Source of the DNA: Alphaproteobacteria bacterium
Lineage (GTDB): Bacteria > Pseudomonadota > Alphaproteobacteria > RF32 > CAG-239
Assembly (NCBI GenBank): GCA_015062305.1
Contig: SUUX01000006.1
Span: 8,116 to 72,115, forward strand
Direction of reading: 5' to 3'
Length of the DNA stretch: 64,000 nt
A program made the position numbers and the translations under genes. A model generated the notes under the pieces. It saw only the letters and a list, made by a program, of their open reading frames with translations. It made no database searches and was not told the DNA's origin. Shown here piece by piece: positions 28,585 through 57,690 of the stretch. The stretch's first letter is position 1; each line of letters starts with the position of its first letter.

Positions 28585-29514
28585 ATGTTTTTCAATAAAT
28601 TTTCATCTTCTCCAACTCAAACATCATCTCCTCAGAAAATTCATTTTTTAGGAATCTCTGCACAATCCCTATATTTGGCCTCCATCTTACAAAACAAAGG
28701 CCACAACATTAGCATCATCTGTACTCCTCCAGAGGCAGACGAACTCCATGCGACAGATATTATCCTAAAAGATAAAAGCCATCTTCAAAATCAGAGATAC
28801 AAATTCAACTATATTTTTGAACAAACGTCCCAGCCCGATATTCTTTTCATTGCTTCTGACATACCTTTTCTCAGAAAAGACCTGCTATTGGCATCTCCTA
28901 GACAACTACACAATACGAAAACTATCAATTTAACACCCACCGCCCCCTCAACTTTCACATCCGAGCTACTTAATATTCCAACCACAAATGCCTATCTTCA
29001 TGGCTGGCTCCAAAAAGATAAAAACATCATCATTCAATCAAGCAACAATTACAAACTTATCATCAGCACACCCAAAAACTCACCCGTTCACACCACCCTT
29101 TCATCACTTTTCGAGAATTCTCTTGTTGAATGCTGCACCAATGAAAACGATACAGAAAATTTATGGAAATGGCTAATTCCACAAGCAATCAGCATTCTAT
29201 TAGAAACAAATGGCGTAAAAAACATATATTCATACAGCAAAACCGAGAATGGACGCAAAACAATAGATTCTCTTTTAAAAGAGCTTTCTGCAATAGCCTC
29301 TTCCAGAGAGGTTAGTCTCAACCATAGTTCTATTTTAACACAACTTCATAGCCAACCTGAAAACAACGGATTTTTAACAAAGAACACTCCCAGAAACATC
29401 TTATCTCTCCACCTTCAGTGCCTAAGCCAACTTCTTTTTCAAGGTATAAGCCCCAACAACCCCAACTATCCGGTATTGCATCAAATGATTAACTCTGCTC
29501 TTAACAAATATTAG
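28585..29514 (+). CDS. Divergent 2-dehydropantoate 2-reductase (PanE/ApbA) family protein with a degenerate NAD(P)-binding motif
   Basis: NLWKWLIPQAISILLETNG resembles the KPR 'KlxxNaxxN' block. SKTENGRKTIDSLL resembles the 'SMxxDxxxGRxTEID' block. The GxGxxG is replaced by FLGISAQS. Confidence 0.4.
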   Translation: MFFNKFSSSPTQTSSPQKIHFLGISAQSLYLASILQNKGHNISIICTPPEADELHATDIILKDKSHLQNQRYKFNYIFEQTSQPDILFIASDIPFLRKDLLLASPRQLHNTKTINLTPTAPSTFTSELLNIPTTNAYLHGWLQKDKNIIIQSSNNYKLIISTPKNSPVHTTLSSLFENSLVECCTNENDTENLWKWLIPQAISILLETNGVKNIYSYSKTENGRKTIDSLLKELSAIASSREVSLNHSSILTQLHSQPENNGFLTKNTPRNILSLHLQCLSQLLFQGISPNNPNYPVLHQMINSALNKY

Positions 29515-29594
29515 CATAATCACACAAATCACTTGAAGAAAAAAGCTTCCAATATTATAATCCATGAAAAAGAATGCACCTCAAGAGGTAGAAT

Positions 29595-30653
29595 ATGGAT
29601 TTACGTTATTATATTTCTATTTTCGGAGCTATCATCGCTTTAATCTTGTCATTAGGATTACTGGGATATTCGAATTTACGCAAAAAACAACATCCCGCCA
29701 TTTTTATAATCACCCTAAGCCTCTTAGCCTCTCTCATATATTGCTTCTTTTTTTGGGATTCACTGGATTTCATAAATAACACCTCACCATGGACACTTAT
29801 CAGTATCTTTATAGGTATAATTCCAATAATTGTTAGTCATTTGCTTAGGTTAAAAACATTTTGGCACTATTTTTTCACCATAATTCCCATTGGCTTTATA
29901 ATTTTTTTCTCTAACATCCCAACAGATATCATCCCATCTCTTCCTGCATGGGGAAACCACATCATATGCTTTTTAATATGGGCTTACATATCCCTAACTT
30001 TTCACATTATTGCACCCAAAACAACTCTAGCCTCAACAGAAACCGCCTCAACAGGCTTAGGCATATATATATTATCCCTCTTAAAAGCCATTCCTTTTAG
30101 CTTTGGCTTTATTGCTCTTATTTTTAGCGTTTCTAGCCTAGCTCTTATCATACACAACAAAAAAGCCTCAAAAATAAGCATTCCTAAAGTCGATGCCGAT
30201 TGTTTAGGTTTTATTTTAGGTGGACTTTTCTATTTATGTGCAACAGAAAACGCTTTTAGCCCTGTTCTTATTTTTATGATGCTATTTATTTGTGAAACAG
30301 GATTAGCTTTGATACTAAAACTGTCTTTTCTACCTCAATATAAAGACCTTCATAACAACACAGCCTGCTCAAAGGCAGAGCAAAAAGGCCTCTTGCCTCC
30401 AATAATAAACAACCTTTTTGCTCGCATAAACATTCTTCTTGTTCTAATGGGATGCTTTCAAGTATACGCCCCCAATCAACATTCCATTCTTCTTATCTGC
30501 TTTGCAATCACATGCTGGCAGATGTATCGCCTTATAAATTGGAATTCGTTGACCTCAAACATCAAAGAAACCAATCTTATGGTTCAGCAAGCACTCAAAA
30601 AAAATATTAACAGGCTAAAAAACAACATCAACAACAAAAACAAGGCTGACTAA
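29595..30653 (+). CDS. Polytopic membrane protein, hypothetical (352 aa)
   Basis: About 9-10 TM. No diagnostic motif recognised. Confidence 0.5.
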   Translation: MDLRYYISIFGAIIALILSLGLLGYSNLRKKQHPAIFIITLSLLASLIYCFFFWDSLDFINNTSPWTLISIFIGIIPIIVSHLLRLKTFWHYFFTIIPIGFIIFFSNIPTDIIPSLPAWGNHIICFLIWAYISLTFHIIAPKTTLASTETASTGLGIYILSLLKAIPFSFGFIALIFSVSSLALIIHNKKASKISIPKVDADCLGFILGGLFYLCATENAFSPVLIFMMLFICETGLALILKLSFLPQYKDLHNNTACSKAEQKGLLPPIINNLFARINILLVLMGCFQVYAPNQHSILLICFAITCWQMYRLINWNSLTSNIKETNLMVQQALKKNINRLKNNINNKNKAD

Positions 30654-32020
30654 TGAAACTACTAAACTACTTAAAAAACATATTTCTTCAGCCTCGGACA
30701 ACATCTCCCGAAGAATTAACTCCTGAAGAAGCCTTACAAATAAACTTCAAAGTTGTTGTTGTTGAGTTTGCCGATAATGTAGAAGGCAATTGCGGAGAAA
30801 TAATCACAGCAAAACTACAGTCCTGTGAAGGTCTTTCTGTATCATATTTCAACCAACCTTTTGACAAAAGCTTCTTAAATTTAGAAAGCAGAACTCTTTT
30901 TGACTTAATTGATAAAGGTCAAACAATTTTAGATCGCACCGGCGCAGATGTTCTAGTATGGGGATGCCGAGAAGAAAATAAAATAAGACTAAACTTTCAA
31001 AATCCCCTTCAATATGAAACCGACGGAGATTGCTTCATATCGTTACTTGACAGTCTCTATTTACCAGCAGATATTTTCAAGAATTATGGAGCTTCTTTTC
31101 CAGCTCCTCTCACAAATTTATTATATGGAGCCATCATAAGTGCTCTTAATTTAGAAAACAAAACTCAAAAAATTCAAAAAAAATATTTACTCAAAAAAAT
31201 TATTGCTCGATTATCTGCAGATAATTCAGCAAAAAATCTTTCCGTAGATTATATTCCTTTTGTCATGAATTTTCTTAGTATCATCTATCTAAGTTACTGC
31301 GCCAAATCCAACGAAGACAAAGATTTTAAGATTGTACACAACCTGCTAGATACAGCCCTAAAACACCAAGACCTTATACAAAACCCCATTCATTTAGGTT
31401 GCATATATTACCACCTTGGTCAGTTATATGATGCCACAGCAGAACATTTAACCAAAAGGCCAACAAGCTCATATCGCAACTCCATAAACAGCTACCGCCT
31501 TGCTCAAAAATATCTCGGCAAATATACATATCCTTACGATTATGGATTAATTTCTTTCAAGCTCTCCAACCTTTTCTATAACTATTGGAAACAAAAAGAA
31601 GACCTCTCATCTCTACGCGATTCCGTATTTTATATGAGAGAAGCAGAAAAAATATTCACCTACGCTCTCTTTCCAGAATTTTGGGCTCAGATAGAAGGAA
31701 GGTTAGGATACCTTTTATCCCTCCTCAGCAACATCACCGACAATAATGAAATTGCAGAACTATCCATTGCTGCATACAAAAACCAACAAAAAATCATCAC
31801 CGAAAAGAGAGACCCCCTCCTCTGGGCTAGAATTCAAGAAAAAATTGGAGAAACCTATTTTCGTTTAGGAAAAAAAGAATCAGACAAAGATTCTCTTGAA
31901 GAAGCCTTAGAATATTTTCATGATGCCTTGTATATCTTCGAAAATATGAATCTTGAAAATGACAGCCAAAGGATATCTTCTTCAATATCAAAAACCAATA
32001 ATGTTATTAGTTATCAATAA
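30653..32020 (+). CDS. Hypothetical protein (455 aa), helical/TPR-like C-terminal half
   Basis: ATGA start-stop overlap with the upstream gene. No signal peptide. Confidence 0.5.
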   Translation: MKLLNYLKNIFLQPRTTSPEELTPEEALQINFKVVVVEFADNVEGNCGEIITAKLQSCEGLSVSYFNQPFDKSFLNLESRTLFDLIDKGQTILDRTGADVLVWGCREENKIRLNFQNPLQYETDGDCFISLLDSLYLPADIFKNYGASFPAPLTNLLYGAIISALNLENKTQKIQKKYLLKKIIARLSADNSAKNLSVDYIPFVMNFLSIIYLSYCAKSNEDKDFKIVHNLLDTALKHQDLIQNPIHLGCIYYHLGQLYDATAEHLTKRPTSSYRNSINSYRLAQKYLGKYTYPYDYGLISFKLSNLFYNYWKQKEDLSSLRDSVFYMREAEKIFTYALFPEFWAQIEGRLGYLLSLLSNITDNNEIAELSIAAYKNQQKIITEKRDPLLWARIQEKIGETYFRLGKKESDKDSLEEALEYFHDALYIFENMNLENDSQRISSSISKTNNVISYQ

Positions 32021-42930: not shown

Positions 42931-42950
42931 GGGTGACATTCCTTCAAAAC

Positions 42951-45020
42951 TTAAAACAATTTCAACACACCTTGAGAGGCTTGTGACGCCAGCGATAGGG
43001 CATTAATCGCCAATTGTTGACGAGTTTGCAAAGCCAGCATATTGGCAGATTCTTCATTCATATCCGCCAAAGTGAGCTTATCTGAGCCCTCGGTGAGGAT
43101 GTTTATTAGGTTTTCGGTAAAATCTTGTCTGTTCATCACAATGCTATAATTATTGCCAAGTTCTCCGGAAAATGCACGCAACTGATTTATGGCTGATGTC
43201 AGTTCTCCTATTGAGCGAGAAATATCTTCAACCGTTGCCCATTCTGTTGTGGTTAGCCCGATATTTGCGGCAGAAATATCTTTGCCTACCACATCAATAA
43301 AAGCACTGCCATCTTCATTAAATTTGATTTTCAGAGTTTCATTTTTGAGCAGGTTTACACCCTTGTATTTGGCATCATCAATCAAGTCATCATATTGATT
43401 CAAAATCTTTTGATATTGGCTGATATCATAGCCATCTGCCGGAGCCTCACCACCACCGGCATCACGGCGCAGGCTAAACGCCACCGGATTCTCACTACCT
43501 CCAACCGTGATGGTGCTAAAGGTGCCCCAATCAGAACCATCTCCAGTAAAATCCTTCATTCCGGAGATGTCTGTATAACTTGACCATTCTAAATCCCCTA
43601 AGTTTTTTAAGCTCATAATTTTGGCTGAGGAACCATCTTCAGAAAGGCTGACGATAATACCAACTGCGGTTTTGCTACCTTTATAGGTATCATAATCATT
43701 GGCACTACTATAGGTAAAATCAGAGTACATTATATCGCCGATTTTAGGAGTTGCATTACTGCCATCAGCAGATTTCGCACTACCATCGGTGAAACAATTT
43801 TCTAAAAGCTGGAAACTACGAACTGAATAGGTAGTACCTTTAGTATAGTTGTAACGACCACCGCTATCGGTAACGAGACTCCAAGAATAGCTGTTGCTTC
43901 TCTCAGAAGACGACCAAATGAAAGAAGCTAATTGCTCTGCATCTGCACCCAATTTGCCCAAAGCTGTATTTATGGTGTTGAAATGCTCTGCATCAGCTCC
44001 TGCGGTTCCAAAATATTCACTATCTGATATCTGTGTTGTATCTGTGCCATACAAGCCATCAGCTAATTCGCCAATAGATGGCAAATACCAGGTGCCTTTA
44101 CCAAAATTGGCATCTTTTTCGCTAACAACATAATAGTTATATGCCGCATCTGCCGCCGGAGTATCTGCTTCTGTTTGAGTAACCAACAATTTTGTGTTCA
44201 TCTCACCATCATAAACAACCGCTGCATCGGCATTAAACACCTTGCGTGCCAACTCTCCATTGGTAGAAATATTTTTGGCTGTATCCAATGTTATTTGTGA
44301 GTTCCCTTCAGCAACCACGCCATGCACATAGTCACCGCTGGTTTTGATTGTAATATCGCTCAAAGTAATTTCGGCACCATTGCTAGCCAAAATAGCTCCG
44401 GTTGAACCATAAATAACGCCATTTGTTGAGGTATAATCCAGCTCAATATTTGATACTTCCACACCGGTGCCAGTAAATTTGAGCAAATTGTCGCCACCAC
44501 TATAACTTATTTTATTGCCGTTACCATTTATGATAATATCACTCTCACTAATCTCCAAAGGAGCGTCTAGCACCAAATCATCGGCAAGCACCAATTTGGT
44601 TGCTCCTCCTGCTATCAAGGTTTTTATATCATCGGCACTGGCTCCGGCAGAAATAACCTCATAACCATCATCAATAAAATCTTGCAATTTGTCTTCTTTG
44701 GACAAAGAATTTCCGCTTTCATCAAGAACTTGAGTAGCTACCGCTTTGGCTTGCTCCAAAAAAGAGGTGGCGGTTTCAATAGCTGTGGTAGCGGCTTTGA
44801 TGGTCTGAATTCCTTGCCCCATAGAGTCAAGCAGGGCATCGAGGTCATTGGCTCTGTTGTTCAAAGAACGTGCCGTATAAAAAGAAGAGGGATTATCAAT
44901 GGCAGAATTAACCTTTTTGCCGGTGGATAGACGTTCTTGGGTCAAATCCATCAGACTACTGGTCTTTTGCAAGCTCAGCAAATTGCTGCGCATGCTTGCT
45001 GTCAAACTAATCTTTGCCAT
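42951..45020 (-). CDS. fliC: Flagellin-family protein with a large (about 400 aa) central beta-helix-like domain
   Basis: N-terminal D0/D1 ...QERLSTGKKVNSAIDNPSSFYTARSL... C-terminal ...MLALQTRQQLAINALSLASQASQGVLKLF. Central region has repetitive G/S/T/N-rich beta-strand-like segments. No other flagellar genes in the window. Confidence 0.8.
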   Translation of the reverse strand: MAKISLTASMRSNLLSLQKTSSLMDLTQERLSTGKKVNSAIDNPSSFYTARSLNNRANDLDALLDSMGQGIQTIKAATTAIETATSFLEQAKAVATQVLDESGNSLSKEDKLQDFIDDGYEVISAGASADDIKTLIAGGATKLVLADDLVLDAPLEISESDIIINGNGNKISYSGGDNLLKFTGTGVEVSNIELDYTSTNGVIYGSTGAILASNGAEITLSDITIKTSGDYVHGVVAEGNSQITLDTAKNISTNGELARKVFNADAAVVYDGEMNTKLLVTQTEADTPAADAAYNYYVVSEKDANFGKGTWYLPSIGELADGLYGTDTTQISDSEYFGTAGADAEHFNTINTALGKLGADAEQLASFIWSSSERSNSYSWSLVTDSGGRYNYTKGTTYSVRSFQLLENCFTDGSAKSADGSNATPKIGDIMYSDFTYSSANDYDTYKGSKTAVGIIVSLSEDGSSAKIMSLKNLGDLEWSSYTDISGMKDFTGDGSDWGTFSTITVGGSENPVAFSLRRDAGGGEAPADGYDISQYQKILNQYDDLIDDAKYKGVNLLKNETLKIKFNEDGSAFIDVVGKDISAANIGLTTTEWATVEDISRSIGELTSAINQLRAFSGELGNNYSIVMNRQDFTENLINILTEGSDKLTLADMNEESANMLALQTRQQLAINALSLASQASQGVLKLF

Positions 45021-45116
45021 CTATCTTTCTTTGAAAAAACACTAATTTCTTGTATATTACATTATATATAGTGATGAACAAACATCTTTTGAACCTCTGT
45101 GGATAAGAACCGACAC

Positions 45117-45145
45117 AAAAAAGCACTCATTTCAGAGTGCTTTTT
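45117..45145. terminator. Rho-independent terminator after hydA (bidirectional form)
   Basis: A6 GCACTC atttca GAGTGC T5. Confidence 0.6.
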
Positions 45146-45160
45146 GTGTAGTTTTATGGT

Positions 45161-46930
45161 TTATTTACCATACTTGTTACGAGCAACATAATGAGTATGC
45201 AACAAGTGATGGGCTTTTTCCCCACCAGCCTTACCCAAATATTCTTTATACAAGGTTTTTACAGACTCATTATGATGAGACAAACGATTAGCTGCTTTCA
45301 GATCTTCATTCATCAATCCTTTCGCACGCTTTTTACGAATATCATCGGTAATGCCTCTCGGTTTTGGCTGTCCAGGCAACATTACTCTTGGCTGTCCACC
45401 ACCAGAGATACAGCCTCCACGGCAAGCCATCACCTCAACAAAGTGATATGGCATTGGCTCTCCATTTGCCCTTGCTTCTCTAATTCTATTGAGAATAACC
45501 TCAATATTTCCACAACCATGAGCTACAGCTATTCTTATCTTAGTGTCATTGATTACAATTTCGGCCTCTTTAATGCCCTCTAAGCCTTCTATAGCCTTAA
45601 AATTCACTTCACCCAGCTCTTCTCCAGTAATATAGAAATAAGCTGTACGCAAAGCCGCCGTCATAACACCTCCGGTCACACCAAAGATTGTTCCAGCACC
45701 GGAATATTCTCCCAACGGACTATCTGCCTCTTCTTCTGGCAGATTTCTAAAGTCGATTCCGGCTTGTTTTATCATTCTGCAAAGTTCTCTGGTAGTCAAA
45801 GAAACATCAACATCTTGATATCCGGAAGAACTCATATCTTTGCTTCTGGTAATCTCCCATTTTTTTGCAGTACATGGCATTATAGAAACCACCCTTATCT
45901 TAGATGGATTTATTGCCATTTTCTCTGCATAATAGGTCTTAGCCAAGGCCCCAACCATAGATTGAGGAGATTTACATGTTGAGAAATTATCTATCATATC
46001 ATGATGATATTTTTCCAACATATCAACCCAAGCCGGACAACAAGACGTAAACATCGGCAAACTTTCTGGATTCTTGGTAAAACGATTTACAAACTCTGTT
46101 GCCTCTTCTATAATCGTCAAATCAGCACCAAAGTTGGTATCAAACACCTTATTAAACCCTAGTCTGCGCAATGCGGCATAAGTCTTGCCAGTCAAGTTTT
46201 TACCAAACTCATAGCCAAACTCTTCACCTATTGCCACTCTCACAGCCGGAGCAATCTGCACCACAGTAATCAGCTCTGGATCACAAAGCATATCCCATAC
46301 TTTTTGTGTCTCATCATACTCCACAATAGCCCCTGTTGGACAATGCGCTGAACATTGTCCGCATTTAATACAAGGACTATCCGCCAAAGGAATACCTCCG
46401 GCAGCAGTAATTCTTGTTGCCAAACCTCTGTTTAGATAGCTCAAAGCCCAAACATTTTGCTGGTTCTGACAAACCTCCACACAGCGGCCGCAAACCACAC
46501 ATTTAGAAGGATCAAGCACTATAGACTTTGTTGAATCATCTTTTTCCAACTTTTTAGTCAAGCTTGGCAAACGAGAAGAAGAAATCCCAAACGTATTTGA
46601 CAGGTCTTGCAGTTCACAATGCCCGGAACGAATACATGTCAAACACTCATTGGGGTGATTGCTCAAAATCAGCTCCAAAACCGTACGTCTTACTGCAACA
46701 ATTTCAGCATCTCCGGTAATCACTTCCATACCTTCGGCAACAGGTGTACAACAAGAACGCAAAATTCTGCCATTCACTTTCACAATACACATTCCGCAAC
46801 CGGCACTTGGATCAACATCTGGATGCTTACAAAGGGTCGGAATATCTATATGAGCCTTTCTTGCTGCCTCTAAAATGCTTGTTCCAGCCGGAACTTCAAC
46901 CTCAAAATTATCTATTTTTAACTTTACCAT
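45161..46930 (-). CDS. hydA: [FeFe]-hydrogenase catalytic subunit HydA (M3-type: 2Fe-2S + His-ligated 4Fe-4S + 2x[4Fe-4S] + H-cluster)
   Basis: H-cluster motifs L1 FTSCCPAW, L2 MPCTAKKWE, L3 EVMACRGGCISGGGQP. N-terminal NuoG-like CxxC..C. HPNECLTCIRSGHC. CVVCGRCVEVC and CIKCGQCSAHC. Confidence 0.9.
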   Translation of the reverse strand: MVKLKIDNFEVEVPAGTSILEAARKAHIDIPTLCKHPDVDPSAGCGMCIVKVNGRILRSCCTPVAEGMEVITGDAEIVAVRRTVLELILSNHPNECLTCIRSGHCELQDLSNTFGISSSRLPSLTKKLEKDDSTKSIVLDPSKCVVCGRCVEVCQNQQNVWALSYLNRGLATRITAAGGIPLADSPCIKCGQCSAHCPTGAIVEYDETQKVWDMLCDPELITVVQIAPAVRVAIGEEFGYEFGKNLTGKTYAALRRLGFNKVFDTNFGADLTIIEEATEFVNRFTKNPESLPMFTSCCPAWVDMLEKYHHDMIDNFSTCKSPQSMVGALAKTYYAEKMAINPSKIRVVSIMPCTAKKWEITRSKDMSSSGYQDVDVSLTTRELCRMIKQAGIDFRNLPEEEADSPLGEYSGAGTIFGVTGGVMTAALRTAYFYITGEELGEVNFKAIEGLEGIKEAEIVINDTKIRIAVAHGCGNIEVILNRIREARANGEPMPYHFVEVMACRGGCISGGGQPRVMLPGQPKPRGITDDIRKKRAKGLMNEDLKAANRLSHHNESVKTLYKEYLGKAGGEKAHHLLHTHYVARNKYGK

Positions 46931-46932
46931 GG

Positions 46933-48624
46933 TTATTTCTCCTCTCCGGCTGGTTTTGCATCTACAAGTTTATCCAAATATTCTTTTTCAAAGAACTTCA
47001 GCGTCGACAAAACAGGATTCGGTGCTGTTTGACCAAGACCGCATAATGATGCTTTTTGCATAGCCGTTGCGATTCTGCGCAAATCCATCAAATCTTGCTT
47101 TGTTCCTTTTCCTTTGTTTATTTTTTCCAGCAGCAGCAGCATTTGTTTTCCGCCAATTCTGCAAGGAGCGCACTTTCCACAAGATTCATCAACTGTAAAG
47201 TCTAAATAGAAGTTAGCGATATTAACCATGTCAGATGTATCATCCATCACTATCATACCGCCAGAACCCATAATAGAACCAACTTTCTTAAGCTCTTCAT
47301 AGCACACAGGTAAATCCATACTTTCAACTGGAATAACACCCCCAGAAGGGCCACCTGTTTGCACCGCCTTTAGCTTTTTGCCATTGGGCACTCCGCCTCC
47401 AATTTCATTTACAATTTCATTAATTGTTGTTCCCATCGGAACTTCAATCAATCCAGAGTGTTCTACTTGTCCTGTCAAAGCAAAAACTTTTGTTCCCTTA
47501 GAGGTTTCTGTTCCAAAAGAAGCAAACCAATCAGCCCCTTTAAGAATAATTTTTGCAATATTTCCTAAAGTTTCTACATTGTTCACACAAGAAGGCTTAT
47601 TCCACAATCCTTTATCTGTCGGATACGGTGGACGAGGACGAGGAGTTCCTCTTTTTCCCTCAATAGAGTGAATCAAGGCCGTTTCTTCTCCGCAAACAAA
47701 AGCACCGGCACCCAAACGAACTTCAATATTAAAATTAAAGTCTGTGCCCATAATATTGTTTCCTAGCAGTCGATTCTTTTTACAAGCCTTTATCGCCTTT
47801 TCTAGTCTCTCTACCGCCAGCGGATATTCGGCACGCACATAGAACCAACCTTGTGTAGCACCGATTGCATAAGCTGCTATCATCATTCCTTCAATCACAG
47901 AGTGAGGATCACCCTCCAAAATAGAACGATCCATATATGCTCCGGGGTCTCCTTCGTCTCCATTGCATATAATAAATTTCTCATCAACTGTTGGAACTTT
48001 TGCTGCCAATTCCCACTTCATACCGGTAGAGAAGCCTCCACCACCACGGCCTCTCAAACCAGATTTTTTAATTTCAGCCACAACATCGGCAGGCTTCATT
48101 GTCTTCAAAACTTTTTCCAGAGCCAAATACCCGCCTCTTGCAATGTATTCTTGAATATCTTCAGGATCCATATGTCCGGCATCTTTCAACACCACTTTCT
48201 CTTGTTTGGTAAAGAAAGGCAGATCCAAAGATAAAACATGGTCCTGCAAAAACGGAGGCAAAACATATTCTTCACCTGCTTGTTTTTTCAGTGCCGGAAC
48301 GACATGCTCTGTAACAACTAATCTGGCAATCAAAGGTTCAACCCTTTTATACAGAACATCTTTTTGCCCTTTAACTTCCACTCTAATCAATGGCCCTTGA
48401 GCACACAACCCCATACAGCCGGTTGCCACGATTCGAACCTGATCCTCAACACCATGTTCCACAATAGCATTTTTCAAAATATCTATGATATCATCACTTC
48501 CCGAAGACTTACAGCCTGTAGAGTGGCAACAATAAATGCTACAACGATACCTGTCTAACTCTGCATTTTTGTTCTTAGCGATTTCATGAATATCAAATCT
48601 TTTATCCAAATCCATATCAGCCAT
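46933..48624 (-). CDS. hydB: [FeFe]-hydrogenase flavoprotein subunit HydB (NuoF-like, NAD(P)H/FMN/4Fe-4S, N-terminal Trx-like 2Fe-2S)
   Basis: FMN motif GRGGGGFSTGMKW. 4Fe-4S ESCGKCAPCRIG. N-terminal CCHSTGCKSSG...GCMGLCAQGP. 563 aa. Confidence 0.85.
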   Translation of the reverse strand: MADMDLDKRFDIHEIAKNKNAELDRYRCSIYCCHSTGCKSSGSDDIIDILKNAIVEHGVEDQVRIVATGCMGLCAQGPLIRVEVKGQKDVLYKRVEPLIARLVVTEHVVPALKKQAGEEYVLPPFLQDHVLSLDLPFFTKQEKVVLKDAGHMDPEDIQEYIARGGYLALEKVLKTMKPADVVAEIKKSGLRGRGGGGFSTGMKWELAAKVPTVDEKFIICNGDEGDPGAYMDRSILEGDPHSVIEGMMIAAYAIGATQGWFYVRAEYPLAVERLEKAIKACKKNRLLGNNIMGTDFNFNIEVRLGAGAFVCGEETALIHSIEGKRGTPRPRPPYPTDKGLWNKPSCVNNVETLGNIAKIILKGADWFASFGTETSKGTKVFALTGQVEHSGLIEVPMGTTINEIVNEIGGGVPNGKKLKAVQTGGPSGGVIPVESMDLPVCYEELKKVGSIMGSGGMIVMDDTSDMVNIANFYLDFTVDESCGKCAPCRIGGKQMLLLLEKINKGKGTKQDLMDLRRIATAMQKASLCGLGQTAPNPVLSTLKFFEKEYLDKLVDAKPAGEEK

Positions 48625-48629
48625 TATGC

Positions 48630-49109
48630 TTACTCCTCTTCCTCGCTAAGTTTCTTGCGCCATTCATCCAAAATATTACGAACATCACCCGGAGTTACAC
48701 GACCATAGGTTTTGCCGTTCACCACACAAACCGGAGCCAATCCGCAGCATCCGACACATCGAACACTTTGCAAATGGAACATTCTATCCGCAGTACTTTC
48801 GCCTTCTCCGATTCCCAATTCTTTTTTAAACTCTTCTAATACTTTATCATTACCTTTTAAATAACAAGCGGTACCCGTACAAACCGAAATAACCGCTTTT
48901 CCTGGAGCATCTAGCTTAAAAAAGTTATAAAAAGTCAAAACCTCATAGATTCTAGCCAAAGGGATTCCCATTCCTTCTGCAACAGCCATTGCATCTTCCC
49001 ATGGTATAAAACCCTTCACACCTTGAATCTCATGCAAGGCCATAATCAAAGAGCCCCGCTTTTTATGCCACTTGGCTGCAGCTTGTGCCGCCAAAGAATT
49101 ATTTTCCAT
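48630..49109 (-). CDS. hydC: [FeFe]-hydrogenase 2Fe-2S subunit HydC (NuoE-like)
   Basis: VCTGTACYLKG...CVGCCGLAPV thioredoxin-like 2Fe-2S ligands. 159 aa. First gene of the hydCBA order. Confidence 0.8.
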   Translation of the reverse strand: MENNSLAAQAAAKWHKKRGSLIMALHEIQGVKGFIPWEDAMAVAEGMGIPLARIYEVLTFYNFFKLDAPGKAVISVCTGTACYLKGNDKVLEEFKKELGIGEGESTADRMFHLQSVRCVGCCGLAPVCVVNGKTYGRVTPGDVRNILDEWRKKLSEEEE

Positions 49110-55560: not shown

Positions 55561-56115
55561 ATGAAAAACAATAACGATAAAATAATTTTGCTTGTTGGCC
55601 TAATGGGCAGTGGGAAAACCAGCGTAGGCAAACGCCTTTCTAAAAAATTAAACTTGCCTTTCGTTGACGGAGACCGAGAAGTCGAGAAAGCTGCCGGCCT
55701 ATCTCTGATTGACATCCTCAAATGCTTTGGAGAAGAAGAATATCGAGCCGGAGAAGCTCGTGTAATGAAAAGACTTCTTCAAGGCTCCCCTTGTGTTTTA
55801 GCCTCTGGAGGTGGCTCTTTTGTTGCCCCAAAAACCAGAGAATACGCAAAAAAAAACGCCATAACGATATGGCTAAAAGCAGATATAGATGTCATTTATA
55901 ATCGAACTGCCGGACGAGAACATCGCCCATTTATCAAAGGCAACGATAGTGGCCTCAAATCGAAACTGGAAAAATATATAAATGAAGAATATCCTTATTA
56001 CTCCGAAGCGGATATCATCGTTGAAACGAAAGAAGAAAAAGTTGACAATACCGTAAATAGAGTAATTGACGCCATCAACCTCTTTTTGTCAAAACAAAAG
56101 ACTGAGAATCCTTAA
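55561..56115 (+). CDS. aroK: Shikimate kinase
   Basis: P-loop LVGLMGSGKTSVGKRL. 184 aa. Divergent from xerC/D, as in many alphaproteobacteria. Confidence 0.85.
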   Translation: MKNNNDKIILLVGLMGSGKTSVGKRLSKKLNLPFVDGDREVEKAAGLSLIDILKCFGEEEYRAGEARVMKRLLQGSPCVLASGGGSFVAPKTREYAKKNAITIWLKADIDVIYNRTAGREHRPFIKGNDSGLKSKLEKYINEEYPYYSEADIIVETKEEKVDNTVNRVIDAINLFLSKQKTENP

Positions 56116-56725
56116 AATATAGAACCAATTCTTTCATAAAAGGAATTGTTTGTTTTTCCACTATTTGAGGACAGTTATAAAAATCTCTAAAATCACGTCG
56201 CCACTCCAATTGCAAAGAAGTACATCTTTCATGTTTTTTTTGCAGTCGCCCCGTTAAACCTGCACATCCTCTATAATTAGGGTGATTTACCACCATTTTA
56301 ATATTATATTTTCTTGCAAGAACAGAAACCACATGCAAAGCGCCATCATAAAGTTCAGGCTCTTTAATCCCTGTTCCCACCGCCAAATCAAAAGATCTAT
56401 CATTTGTCATTCCATGCACATCTATAAAAAGCTTGTCAAGCAGACCTTTTTCTTCAACAAAATCACTAACCAATACTTTAAAAGGAACAAACTTTGTTCT
56501 TACAATTGTAGAAACCTGACATTCTTCTCCCAAAAAGCGAACCAATTCTCCTGTATACAAATCTTGCATCTTTATTCTTTTACAAGCAAACGACTTTGTA
56601 GAATGTGGAGCGCACAAAACCAAACCAGACCCCTCGTCCCTAAAAGAAAAAACATTTTCTCTTTCTAGAGATGTTTCTGTATCAAAAAATAACGAAGAAT
56701 ATCCTTTTAGTTTATCTAGCATCAA
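56075..56725 (-). CDS. N-formylglutamate amidohydrolase (FGase) family protein, putative
   Basis: LVLCAPHST... and ...FIDVHGM match the FGase HxG..P / D.HS(G)M blocks. 216 aa. 3' end overlaps the aroK 3' end. Confidence 0.4.
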   Translation of the reverse strand: MMLDKLKGYSSLFFDTETSLERENVFSFRDEGSGLVLCAPHSTKSFACKRIKMQDLYTGELVRFLGEECQVSTIVRTKFVPFKVLVSDFVEEKGLLDKLFIDVHGMTNDRSFDLAVGTGIKEPELYDGALHVVSVLARKYNIKMVVNHPNYRGCAGLTGRLQKKHERCTSLQLEWRRDFRDFYNCPQIVEKQTIPFMKELVLYFKDSQSFVLTKRG

Positions 56726-57690
56726 ATCTTCTTCAAAAAATTCACTTTCATAACAGCCAAAGACTGAGCTGTTAAAGCATTTATCGCATCAAAAAACAAG
56801 CTTCTCGTCTTAACTTTTTCTGCCCACTCAATAATTTGTGGATTTTGCATTAAAAGATCGTTTTTAGAAGCCTCCAACAAGGAAACCGCCGCCATCAAGT
56901 GTCCATCATCAACGAGTTTTTTCATCTCCTCCAAAACATCTATTTCTTTTTCTTCGCTTGCCTTTTTTGTATTTTTTATTTGTACAATATCATGAATTTT
57001 AGAATTCAACCGTTCTTTCCAGCTTAAACCTTCTTCGTTTTTATCTGCAGATAAAATTTCATCACAAACATCATTAAATCGATTAGCCAAAAACAACTCC
57101 GATTCTACTCCAATTTTTGCTATCGGCTCCAATACTTTAACTTCCTCCATCATTTTTGGCTTGTCCGCAACAATATTATTAAGCACCTCATATTCATATT
57201 CAAAAGGCTTTCCTTTTTCTGCAGCATCTTTAACCAACATTAAAGAAGTCAACACCAAAGCACTATCATCTGTTATTTCCGACAGCTTATCTAATTTTCT
57301 CTCATTTTTATCAACTCTGGTAACCAAACCCAAAACCGTTGCTACATCTGCCTTCGAACTAATAACATTCAAATTCATTTTTTCAATTGCATCAAAACGC
57401 TCGTACACTTTTGATAAATCTGGCTCTTTTATTTGTGACGCCAACAAAGCCAACTGTTGTTGAAGGCTATGCATTTGAGAATTTAAGGTATTAATTTGTA
57501 CCTGATACATATCTTTTGTTTCTTGCACGGCAAAAAAACTCTTCATCTTCTGTAGCACTTGCGGATTTTTCCAAACGCCATACCCACCAACAACAAGTAT
57601 CACCAACAACAAAGAAAATTTTCCAAACTTTGTTTTTTTCAGCGATTCTTTTGTTTCTTCAGAAACGGATTGCTTTTCTTTTTTAGCCAT
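56722..57690 (-). CDS. Membrane-anchored coiled-coil protein (N-terminal TM, long heptad-rich region); alpha-Mic60/mitofilin-like candidate
   Basis: KFGKFSLLLVILVVGGYGVW TM, followed by a predicted coiled coil. Divergent from tsaD. Confidence 0.5.
   Translation of the reverse strand: MAKKEKQSVSEETKESLKKTKFGKFSLLLVILVVGGYGVWKNPQVLQKMKSFFAVQETKDMYQVQINTLNSQMHSLQQQLALLASQIKEPDLSKVYERFDAIEKMNLNVISSKADVATVLGLVTRVDKNERKLDKLSEITDDSALVLTSLMLVKDAAEKGKPFEYEYEVLNNIVADKPKMMEEVKVLEPIAKIGVESELFLANRFNDVCDEILSADKNEEGLSWKERLNSKIHDIVQIKNTKKASEEKEIDVLEEMKKLVDDGHLMAAVSLLEASKNDLLMQNPQIIEWAEKVKTRSLFFDAINALTAQSLAVMKVNFLKKI

Follow-up and report, generated by a model that had tools for sequence, protein, structure and literature searches.

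A large flagellin with a beta-helix and C-type-lectin insert from an uncultured gut alphaproteobacterium, a candidate remote target of a diversity-generating retroelement

The flagellin gene and its outer insert

The subject of this work is a flagellin gene in a 64-kb stretch of DNA from an uncultured alphaproteobacterium (contig SUUX01000006.1, positions 8,116 to 72,115, of assembly GCA_015062305.1), the whole of which is called the window below. The open reading frame (ORF) starts at an ATG, occupies positions 42951..45020 of the minus strand, as do all features of the gene described here, and encodes a protein of 689 residues. As the original prediction from the bare sequence had stated, the termini are canonical for flagellins: Pfam Flagellin_N covers residues 11-116 (E 2e-14) and Flagellin_C residues 606-689 (E 2e-9), with both scores exceeding the curated cut-offs, and the D0/D1 helical regions typical of bacterial flagellins of the FliC/FljK type are present at the N and C termini alike. 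The nearest solved proteins are the Caulobacter flagellins FljK/L/M/N, of 270 residues, to which the query aligns in two blocks (about 8-114 and 534-689); about 420 residues are therefore inserted at the tip of D1. In the AlphaFold2 model, built from 92 homologs, the N-terminal D0/D1 segment (residues 1-117; 44670..45020) forms helices 8-33, 44-101 and 108-117, and the C-terminal D1/D0 segment (residues 534-689; 42954..43421), which aligns to FljK 115-272, contains a long helix spanning residues 597-688.

The insert is modelled confidently, with a predicted local distance difference test score (pLDDT) of 83-94 for residues about 110-500. It begins with a right-handed beta-helix-like outer domain (residues ~120-262; 44235..44663), followed by an Lcl_C/DUF1566 domain of C-type-lectin fold (residues ~263-410; 43791..44234), a small beta-rich subdomain (residues ~420-508; 43497..43763; pLDDT ~70-95) and a GC-rich (50-62%), Gly/Ala-rich linker that leads back to D1 (residues ~483-545; 43386..43573; pLDDT <50 for residues 509-531). 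The fold of the first domain is that of a right-handed parallel beta-helix. When the suggested profile searches were run, both flagellin families were matched, whereas PF20585 (pectate lyase-like adhesive domain) matched the window protein weakly (E 0.058, 14 bits against a cut-off of 24.3); this cut-off is exceeded by two homologs, P0028 (34 bits) and P0093 (29 bits). The match to Lcl_C (PF07603) at residues ~263-410 is likewise sub-threshold (20-21 bits against a gathering score of 34.9), and the top fold match of the lectin domain is 4EPS. Thus the beta-helix that had been proposed for the central region is found at residues ~120-260, while the second half of the insert is a lectin domain carrying a variable region, a feature that had been missed. 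The lectin domain of the family is invariably accompanied by the beta-rich subdomain, which is conserved in the family alignment (PKIGDxMY...AVGI..), and the two also co-occur in carriers that are not flagellins. Pfam scans, run on the complete protein and on the insert, revealed no peptidase domain, and an enzymatic flagellin (flagellinolysin) was ruled out on that ground. The evidence supports a real large flagellin whose outer insert is non-standard and adhesin-like; this insert combines a right-handed beta-helix with a lectin fold, in place of the standard D2/D3 fold that had been named as the contrary outcome.

Inside the lectin domain, about 290 residues before the C terminus, lies a variable region (VR) of 114 bp (residues 369-406; 43804..43917), WSSSERSNSYSWSLVTDSGGRYNYTKGTTYSVRSFQLL, whose length, ends and scaffold match those of VRs with cognate template repeats (TRs) in relatives. 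It consists of TTGGTCGTCTTCTGAG, 25 codons and TCAGTTCGTAGTTTCCAGCTTTT, and encodes WSSSE..SW.L.T..G.R....K.....VRSFQLL. The same pattern of a fixed scaffold with variable positions is seen throughout the family. As in known targets of diversity-generating retroelements (DGRs), a C-type-lectin-type fold underlies the VR. Codon positions were compared among four copies that are ~90% identical, namely the window copy, L094, L095 and L096. In the VR core 41 of 77 columns are variable (53%), against 20% elsewhere (p 2e-10). Moreover, 33 of these variable columns fall on codon positions 1 and 2 and 8 on position 3, the corresponding numbers elsewhere being 130 and 236 (Fisher p 3.7e-8). Such variation at positions 1 and 2 therefore fits mutagenesis of the adenines of AAY or AAA codons and is the opposite of ordinary divergence. 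Indeed, in the alignment of the four copies hypervariability is limited to adenine-derived (AAY) codon positions, and codon tables reveal the same pattern of positions 1 and 2 in the VRs of a fifth locus, L100/L101.

The gene was described as solitary, which holds locally; it is, however, a member of a multi-copy family whose loci are dispersed. At least five flagellin loci exist in the organism of the window or in close strains (the window, P0002, P0004/P0005, P0003 and P0067), of which P0002 comes from the same JGI sample as the window copy and lies on another contig in another context. The copies of ~690 residues are 90-100% identical over much of their length, and their VR cores differ massively. 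The paralog loci have different housekeeping contexts with no glycosyltransferases alongside, and those examined in this organism have no flagellar gene within their 10-kb flanks. P0067 (L006:4744-6516), a flagellin paralog of 590 residues that belongs to this organism or a close relative, has housekeeping genes around it as well; it is 95% identical to the window protein over an aligned quarter of the query, evidently the flagellin termini, and its middle domain is wholly different, with no Pfam match and no VR scaffold. Another contig (L101:1-3108) joins the upstream flank of the window locus (hydA, 97-100% identical; window 42946-45697) to the gene body and downstream flank of another paralog, 100% identical to L100 (L100:3492-3824). 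Either the assembly is chimeric here or the paralog loci have truly recombined; the contig was set aside as evidence, being unusable as an allele of the window locus.

Beyond these strains, more than 100 full-length homologs share 41-50% identity with the protein, and at least 576 relatives occur in GTDB species genomes. The best 80 relatives all come from metagenome-assembled genomes (MAGs) of uncultured gut Alphaproteobacteria, the hosts being humans, deer and others, and a single MAG can hold as many as 10 copies on different contigs. The lectin module is rare, with 170 clusters at 50% identity among 1.84 billion representatives (E <= 1e-3). A BLAST check placed flagellin termini in ~42 of the best 150 of these clusters and not in the others of the 150, and the eight clusters without flagellin termini that were scanned proved to be multi-Lcl_C proteins.

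Diversity-generating retroelements beside related flagellins

To our knowledge, no prokaryotic system other than DGRs is known to hypermutate proteins in a targeted manner, and the cellular targets described so far are mostly pili, lipoproteins and putative sensors, together with phage tail fibres. When ORFs were clustered around 79 loci of the flagellin family, the most recurrent neighbour was an ABC-transporter ATPase, followed in second and third place by RVT_1 and bAvd, the latter two placed directly upstream of the flagellin; the Avd protein also matches NF033474, below its cut-off. In nine loci of related gut Alphaproteobacteria (L026, L027, L032, L034, L047, L053, L055, L090 and L098), a gene for a reverse transcriptase (RT) immediately precedes that of a homologous flagellin, and an Avd ORF is recognised in seven of them. 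Near the RT, a repeat of ~115 bp matches the interior of the flagellin gene, and the mismatches fall almost all on adenines of the non-coding copy. In six loci the fractions of template-to-VR mismatches located at template adenines are 18/18, 14/14, 16/16, 11/11, 18/18 and 13/15, which amounts to 90/92 (binomial p 6e-5 to 6e-9 per locus); L034 and L055 contain additional TR/VR pairs, with indels. Mismatches restricted in this way to adenines are the defining signature of a DGR TR/VR pair. On this sequence evidence, rewriting by DGRs is shown for homologous flagellins in related genomes, and the family qualifies as DGR targets.

In one MAG a single TR matches two VRs, the adjacent one (18/18 mismatches from A) and a second one in a flagellin on another contig (16/17). 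In the related MAG CAZZNV01 (L032:2354-11817) the gene order is FliK-FlgD-FlgE (746 residues)-[TR]-RT-Avd-flagellin (787 residues), and the VR of this flagellin differs from its template in an A-specific manner (14/14). Other family members adjoin FlgE-like, FlgF and FlgG genes. Those lineages therefore have flagellar machinery, and a DGR can be part of a flagellar cluster. Two family members appear broken: at L055:10001-12074 a 1-nt indel with respect to the TR divides the flagellin gene into two ORFs, and the copy of L040 has an in-frame stop within the VR (~10679). These copies may be accidents of retrohoming or sequencing errors.

Downstream of RT-adjacent VRs, at a distance of ~35 nt, come a conserved spacer and a GC-rich hairpin, the GC stem of which measures 6-10 bp. 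Of five RT-adjacent targets whose DNA was folded, three gave z-scores of -2.7 to -4.3 and the other two -0.85 and -0.95. A hairpin/cruciform 3' of the VR promotes retrohoming in the Bordetella phage DGR (PMC3240598), and the GC hairpins predicted here match this requirement.

An RT-Avd-TR cassette at L097:2869-9090, with a 10-bp GC hairpin, targets a protein of more than 1031 residues instead of a flagellin. This target carries the same Lcl_C module and downstream subdomain without flagellin termini, and from its sequence looks like an autotransporter or beta-helix adhesin, which suggests that the Lcl_C module moves between surface scaffolds.

Origin of the variable region in the window copy

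Taken together, the protein is probably a filament flagellin of an uncultured anaerobic gut alphaproteobacterium, in which the VR of the lectin insert was written by a DGR located elsewhere in the genome. The conserved D0/D1 core would form the filament, and the outer insert would be a short beta-helix stalk bearing the Lcl_C/C-type-lectin domain, displayed outward. By analogy with Mtd, TvpA and pilus-tip targets, the 114-bp VR would encode the ligand-binding face of this domain. RT and Avd would copy the TR and randomise its adenines, mostly in AAY codons, and the resulting cDNA would replace the VR; the distant DGR could act in trans on several paralogs. The window copy would now stand as a 'fixed' variant, one of a repertoire spread over at least five loci, four of which hold ~90% identical copies with different VRs. 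A filament of such subunits could present thousands of variable lectin-like sites, and serve either reprogrammable binding of high avidity or variation of an antigen or phage receptor.

Several observations weigh against this reading. The VR of the window copy is the same on 10 contigs drawn from several samples, and a 98%-identical variant shares it, all 17 substitutions lying elsewhere; the locus accordingly gives no indication that it is still being diversified. The strains compared at the other paralog loci are 7% diverged overall, and the excess variation of the VRs could be old. No RVT_1 or bAvd match exists among the genes of the window, and searches with the gene (blastn and tblastn) found neither a TR nor a second flagellin within it. 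A pattern scan of public metagenome contigs, a collection evidently without contigs of this organism, did not contain the cognate TR, and the same scan of viral contigs gave nothing. Genes of the flagellar apparatus were seen only in related MAGs, where FliK, FlgD, FlgE, FlgF and FlgG lie beside family members. Finally, the initiation-of-mutagenic-homing/hairpin element is missing: in the stretch just 3' of the VR (43759..43803) the conserved spacer and GC-rich hairpin are replaced, and a hairpin scan finds a remaining 4-bp stem (CTGC..GCAG). The DNA of this region folds with -9.4 kcal/mol (z -1.3). Three paralogs resemble the window copy in having no spacer or GC hairpin, with stems of 4-5 bp left in the four (z -1.3 to -1.5), whereas the paralog L100/L101 (P0003/P0006) keeps both the spacer 'ATCCCTTTAACACTTCCG' and the GC hairpin. 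The contigs of P0003 and P0006, which hold this fifth locus, are short and contain no RT.

Because the GC hairpin that promotes retrohoming is absent, the window copy would now be a poor or former target. With no RT within the window and no 3' hairpin, we regard it as a remote, weak or former DGR target, and the active acceptor is more likely a hairpin-bearing paralog than the window copy. A stronger version, which we put forward only tentatively, is that one DGR elsewhere rewrites in trans the dispersed flagellin VRs, the window copy being included now or recently, so that the filament would be a retroelement-programmable, hypervariable adhesin or antigen.

The pattern scan of metagenome contigs returned a TR (L092) and a VR (L093), both from other species. 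L092, a contig of 1.3 kb, holds a lone, AAY-rich, non-coding TR (L092:943-1053) beside yajC/secD-like genes; of the TRs found it comes closest to the window VR, with several non-adenine differences. L097 and L098/L099 were tried as cognate DGRs and rejected: they belong to other species, and their TRs have ~17 or more non-adenine mismatches to the window VR.

The variable positions stay within precisely the 75-nt core rewritten by DGRs in relatives; the third positions of the codons are preserved (33 columns against 8), the reverse of the flanks and as adenine mutagenesis of AAY codons would give; and the L100/L101 paralog, from closely related strains, still has the spacer and the GC hairpin that characterise DGR targets. 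These features make it unlikely that we are dealing with an ordinary multi-copy flagellin whose surface domain evolves fast under phage or IgA selection, or by recombination between paralogs, in an organism with no retroelement, where the VR-like stretch would be inherited ancestry. Such an explanation nevertheless agrees with the failure to find an RT or TR for this organism in the window or the scanned public contigs, with the absent hairpin and the stability of the VR across samples, and with paralog flanks that are 90-100% identical, one hybrid contig hinting at recombination or gene conversion. The protein might also form no filament and be a flagellin-derived secreted or surface adhesin, or an immune decoy, that uses its termini for export only in an organism without functional flagella. 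In line with the original prediction, no flagellar genes are seen among the annotated genes of the window, and the examined paralog loci are of the housekeeping kind described above; furthermore, the lectin module occurs in non-flagellin surface proteins as well, including the autotransporter-like DGR target. Yet related MAGs place family members beside flgE, flgD, fliK, flgF and flgG, and we judge this possibility quite improbable. The non-motility or TLR5-decoy role that had been raised is likewise not favoured on present sequence grounds, because related genomes carry flagellar hook and rod genes, some of them beside family members.

Least credible, and very improbable in our estimate, is a horizontally acquired, GC-rich and glycosylated 'giant' flagellin linked to the neighbouring glycosyltransferase. 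The gene does stand 4 points above the average GC content of the window, with a glycosyltransferase gene adjacent to it. However, the earlier figures of about 50% GC in parts of the gene and about 35% in the genome overstate the contrast: the gene has 42.1%, the window 37.7% and six neighbouring genes 35-42%, the adjoining hydrogenase and glycogen-synthase genes being at 40.5-41.6%. Values of 50% or more are confined to short stretches (gene nt 140-292, 369-470 and 1448-1635), the GC peaks correspond to Gly/Ala-rich stretches, and the maximum of 62% (over 100 nt, window 43429-43528) falls on the Gly/Ala-rich, low-confidence linker. A foreign GC island was accordingly ruled out, the contrast being small, the adjacent genes similar and no sign of foreign origin apparent. 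The glycosyltransferase is a GlgA-type glycogen/starch synthase (Pfam Glyco_transf_5; NCBIfam glgA) encoded convergently on the opposite strand, so that its proposed link to flagellin glycosylation was dropped as well, and the paralogs lie in unrelated contexts without glycosyltransferases.

The reading that we prefer, a filament flagellin with a VR written by a remote DGR, has parallels among DGR proteins with C-type-lectin (CLec)/DUF1566 folds, such as Bordetella phage Mtd, Treponema TvpA, Legionella LdtA and the type V pilus tips of Bacteroides. In the relatives of the window gene, as in these systems, the VR lies on a CLec/Lcl_C fold, the TRs are AAY-rich, changes are limited to adenines, RT and Avd are encoded alongside, and the VR is followed on its 3' side by a GC hairpin; moreover, the top fold match obtained here, 4EPS, is the reference fold of the Bacteroides pilus targets. 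Remote or multiple VRs per TR occur in Treponema and Legionella, and the MAG with two VRs is alike in this respect. Unlike known targets, the scaffold here is a flagellin, the targets form a dispersed multigene family, and the window copy has no adjacent DGR or hairpin. The VR of known targets is usually C-terminal, whereas here it is internal because the lectin domain is inserted inside D1. Lcl of Legionella binds glycosaminoglycan, a property that is not transferable to the domain of the window protein, which matches the C-terminal domain of Lcl (PDB 8Q4E; PF07603) below the gathering score. Among elaborate flagellins (the multi-flagellin system of Caulobacter, 'giant' flagellins, flagellinolysin, and the sheaths of Achromobacter, Sinorhizobium and Geovibrio), the D0/D1 core is similarly conserved with extra domains at the D1 tip, and Caulobacter also has several flagellin paralogs per genome. 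The described outer domains differ from the present insert, a beta-helix and lectin fold with neither D2/D3 nor peptidase. 'Giant' flagellins exceed 1000 residues, so that this protein of 689 residues is large but shorter.

Full-text literature searches combining flagellin or flagell* with DGR terms found no paper describing DGR-diversified flagellins. The word 'flagellin' appears once among the target annotations of a 2019 DGR survey (PMC6642488), and three large DGR surveys do not mention flagella. In the portion of the target table of Roux et al. that was available, PF07603 occurs 338 times, and neither PF00669 nor PF00700 is listed; these large surveys state that remote DGR targets are missed (Roux et al. 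2021). The action of a DGR on a flagellin through an internal VR appears essentially undescribed in the literature searched.

If one DGR does rewrite the dispersed flagellin VRs in trans, DGR diversification would be known for the first time in a motility organelle, and the VR would lie in the middle of the protein instead of at its end. The rewriting seen in sister genomes suggests that the flagella of gut bacteria can be reprogrammed in what they bind or present. On a flagellin, the hypervariable lectin site would be carried by thousands of subunits, a display of very high avidity. This would bear on why gut commensals keep many flagellin genes, on flagella as adhesins and antigens (IgA, TLR5 and flagellotropic phage) and on how DGRs act on remote targets. 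The family indicates that a DGR VR is workable in an internal inserted domain, which matters for engineering and for detection rules, which often assume a C-terminal VR. For the window copy itself the claim is more modest: it would be one hairpin-less member of the repertoire.

Transcription unit and neighbouring genes

The flagellin gene, which lies between HydA and GlgA, is monocistronic and forms its own transcription unit, because a strong intrinsic terminator (45118..45145, minus strand; 11-bp stem in the terminator scan) ends the hydrogenase operon 100 nt upstream. Between this terminator and the start codon, alignment of the upstream regions of the window copy, L094, L095 and L096 defines a promoter/5'-untranslated-region block of ~90 bp (45021..45107, minus strand), also present in L101. 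It is nearly identical between paralogs despite their unrelated genomic contexts, and each copy therefore travelled as a cassette of promoter plus gene. The block contains TTCAAA-N17-TATATA, a possible promoter by our own reading that the promoter scan did not flag. No sigma-28 or sigma-54 consensus was seen by eye upstream of the gene, and a sigma-70-type scan of this region gave nothing convincing on its strand.

The neighbours of the flagellin gene in the window are housekeeping genes, among them those for GrpE, GlgA-type, HydABC-type, LptD/F/G, SurA, KsgA, XerC-like, LeuRS and AddAB-like proteins. The hydrogenase operon (45161-49109, minus strand) is a three-gene [FeFe] hydrogenase set coding for HydA-like (589 residues), NuoF-like (563 residues) and NuoE-like (159 residues) proteins. 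It resembles electron-bifurcating HydABC and points to a strictly anaerobic, fermentative alphaproteobacterium as the host. Two further runs of conserved ORFs with no Pfam match on record, one at 28585-32020 on the plus strand (309, 352 and 455 residues) and one at 56075-57690 on the minus strand (216 and 322 residues), recur on several other contigs of the same organism.

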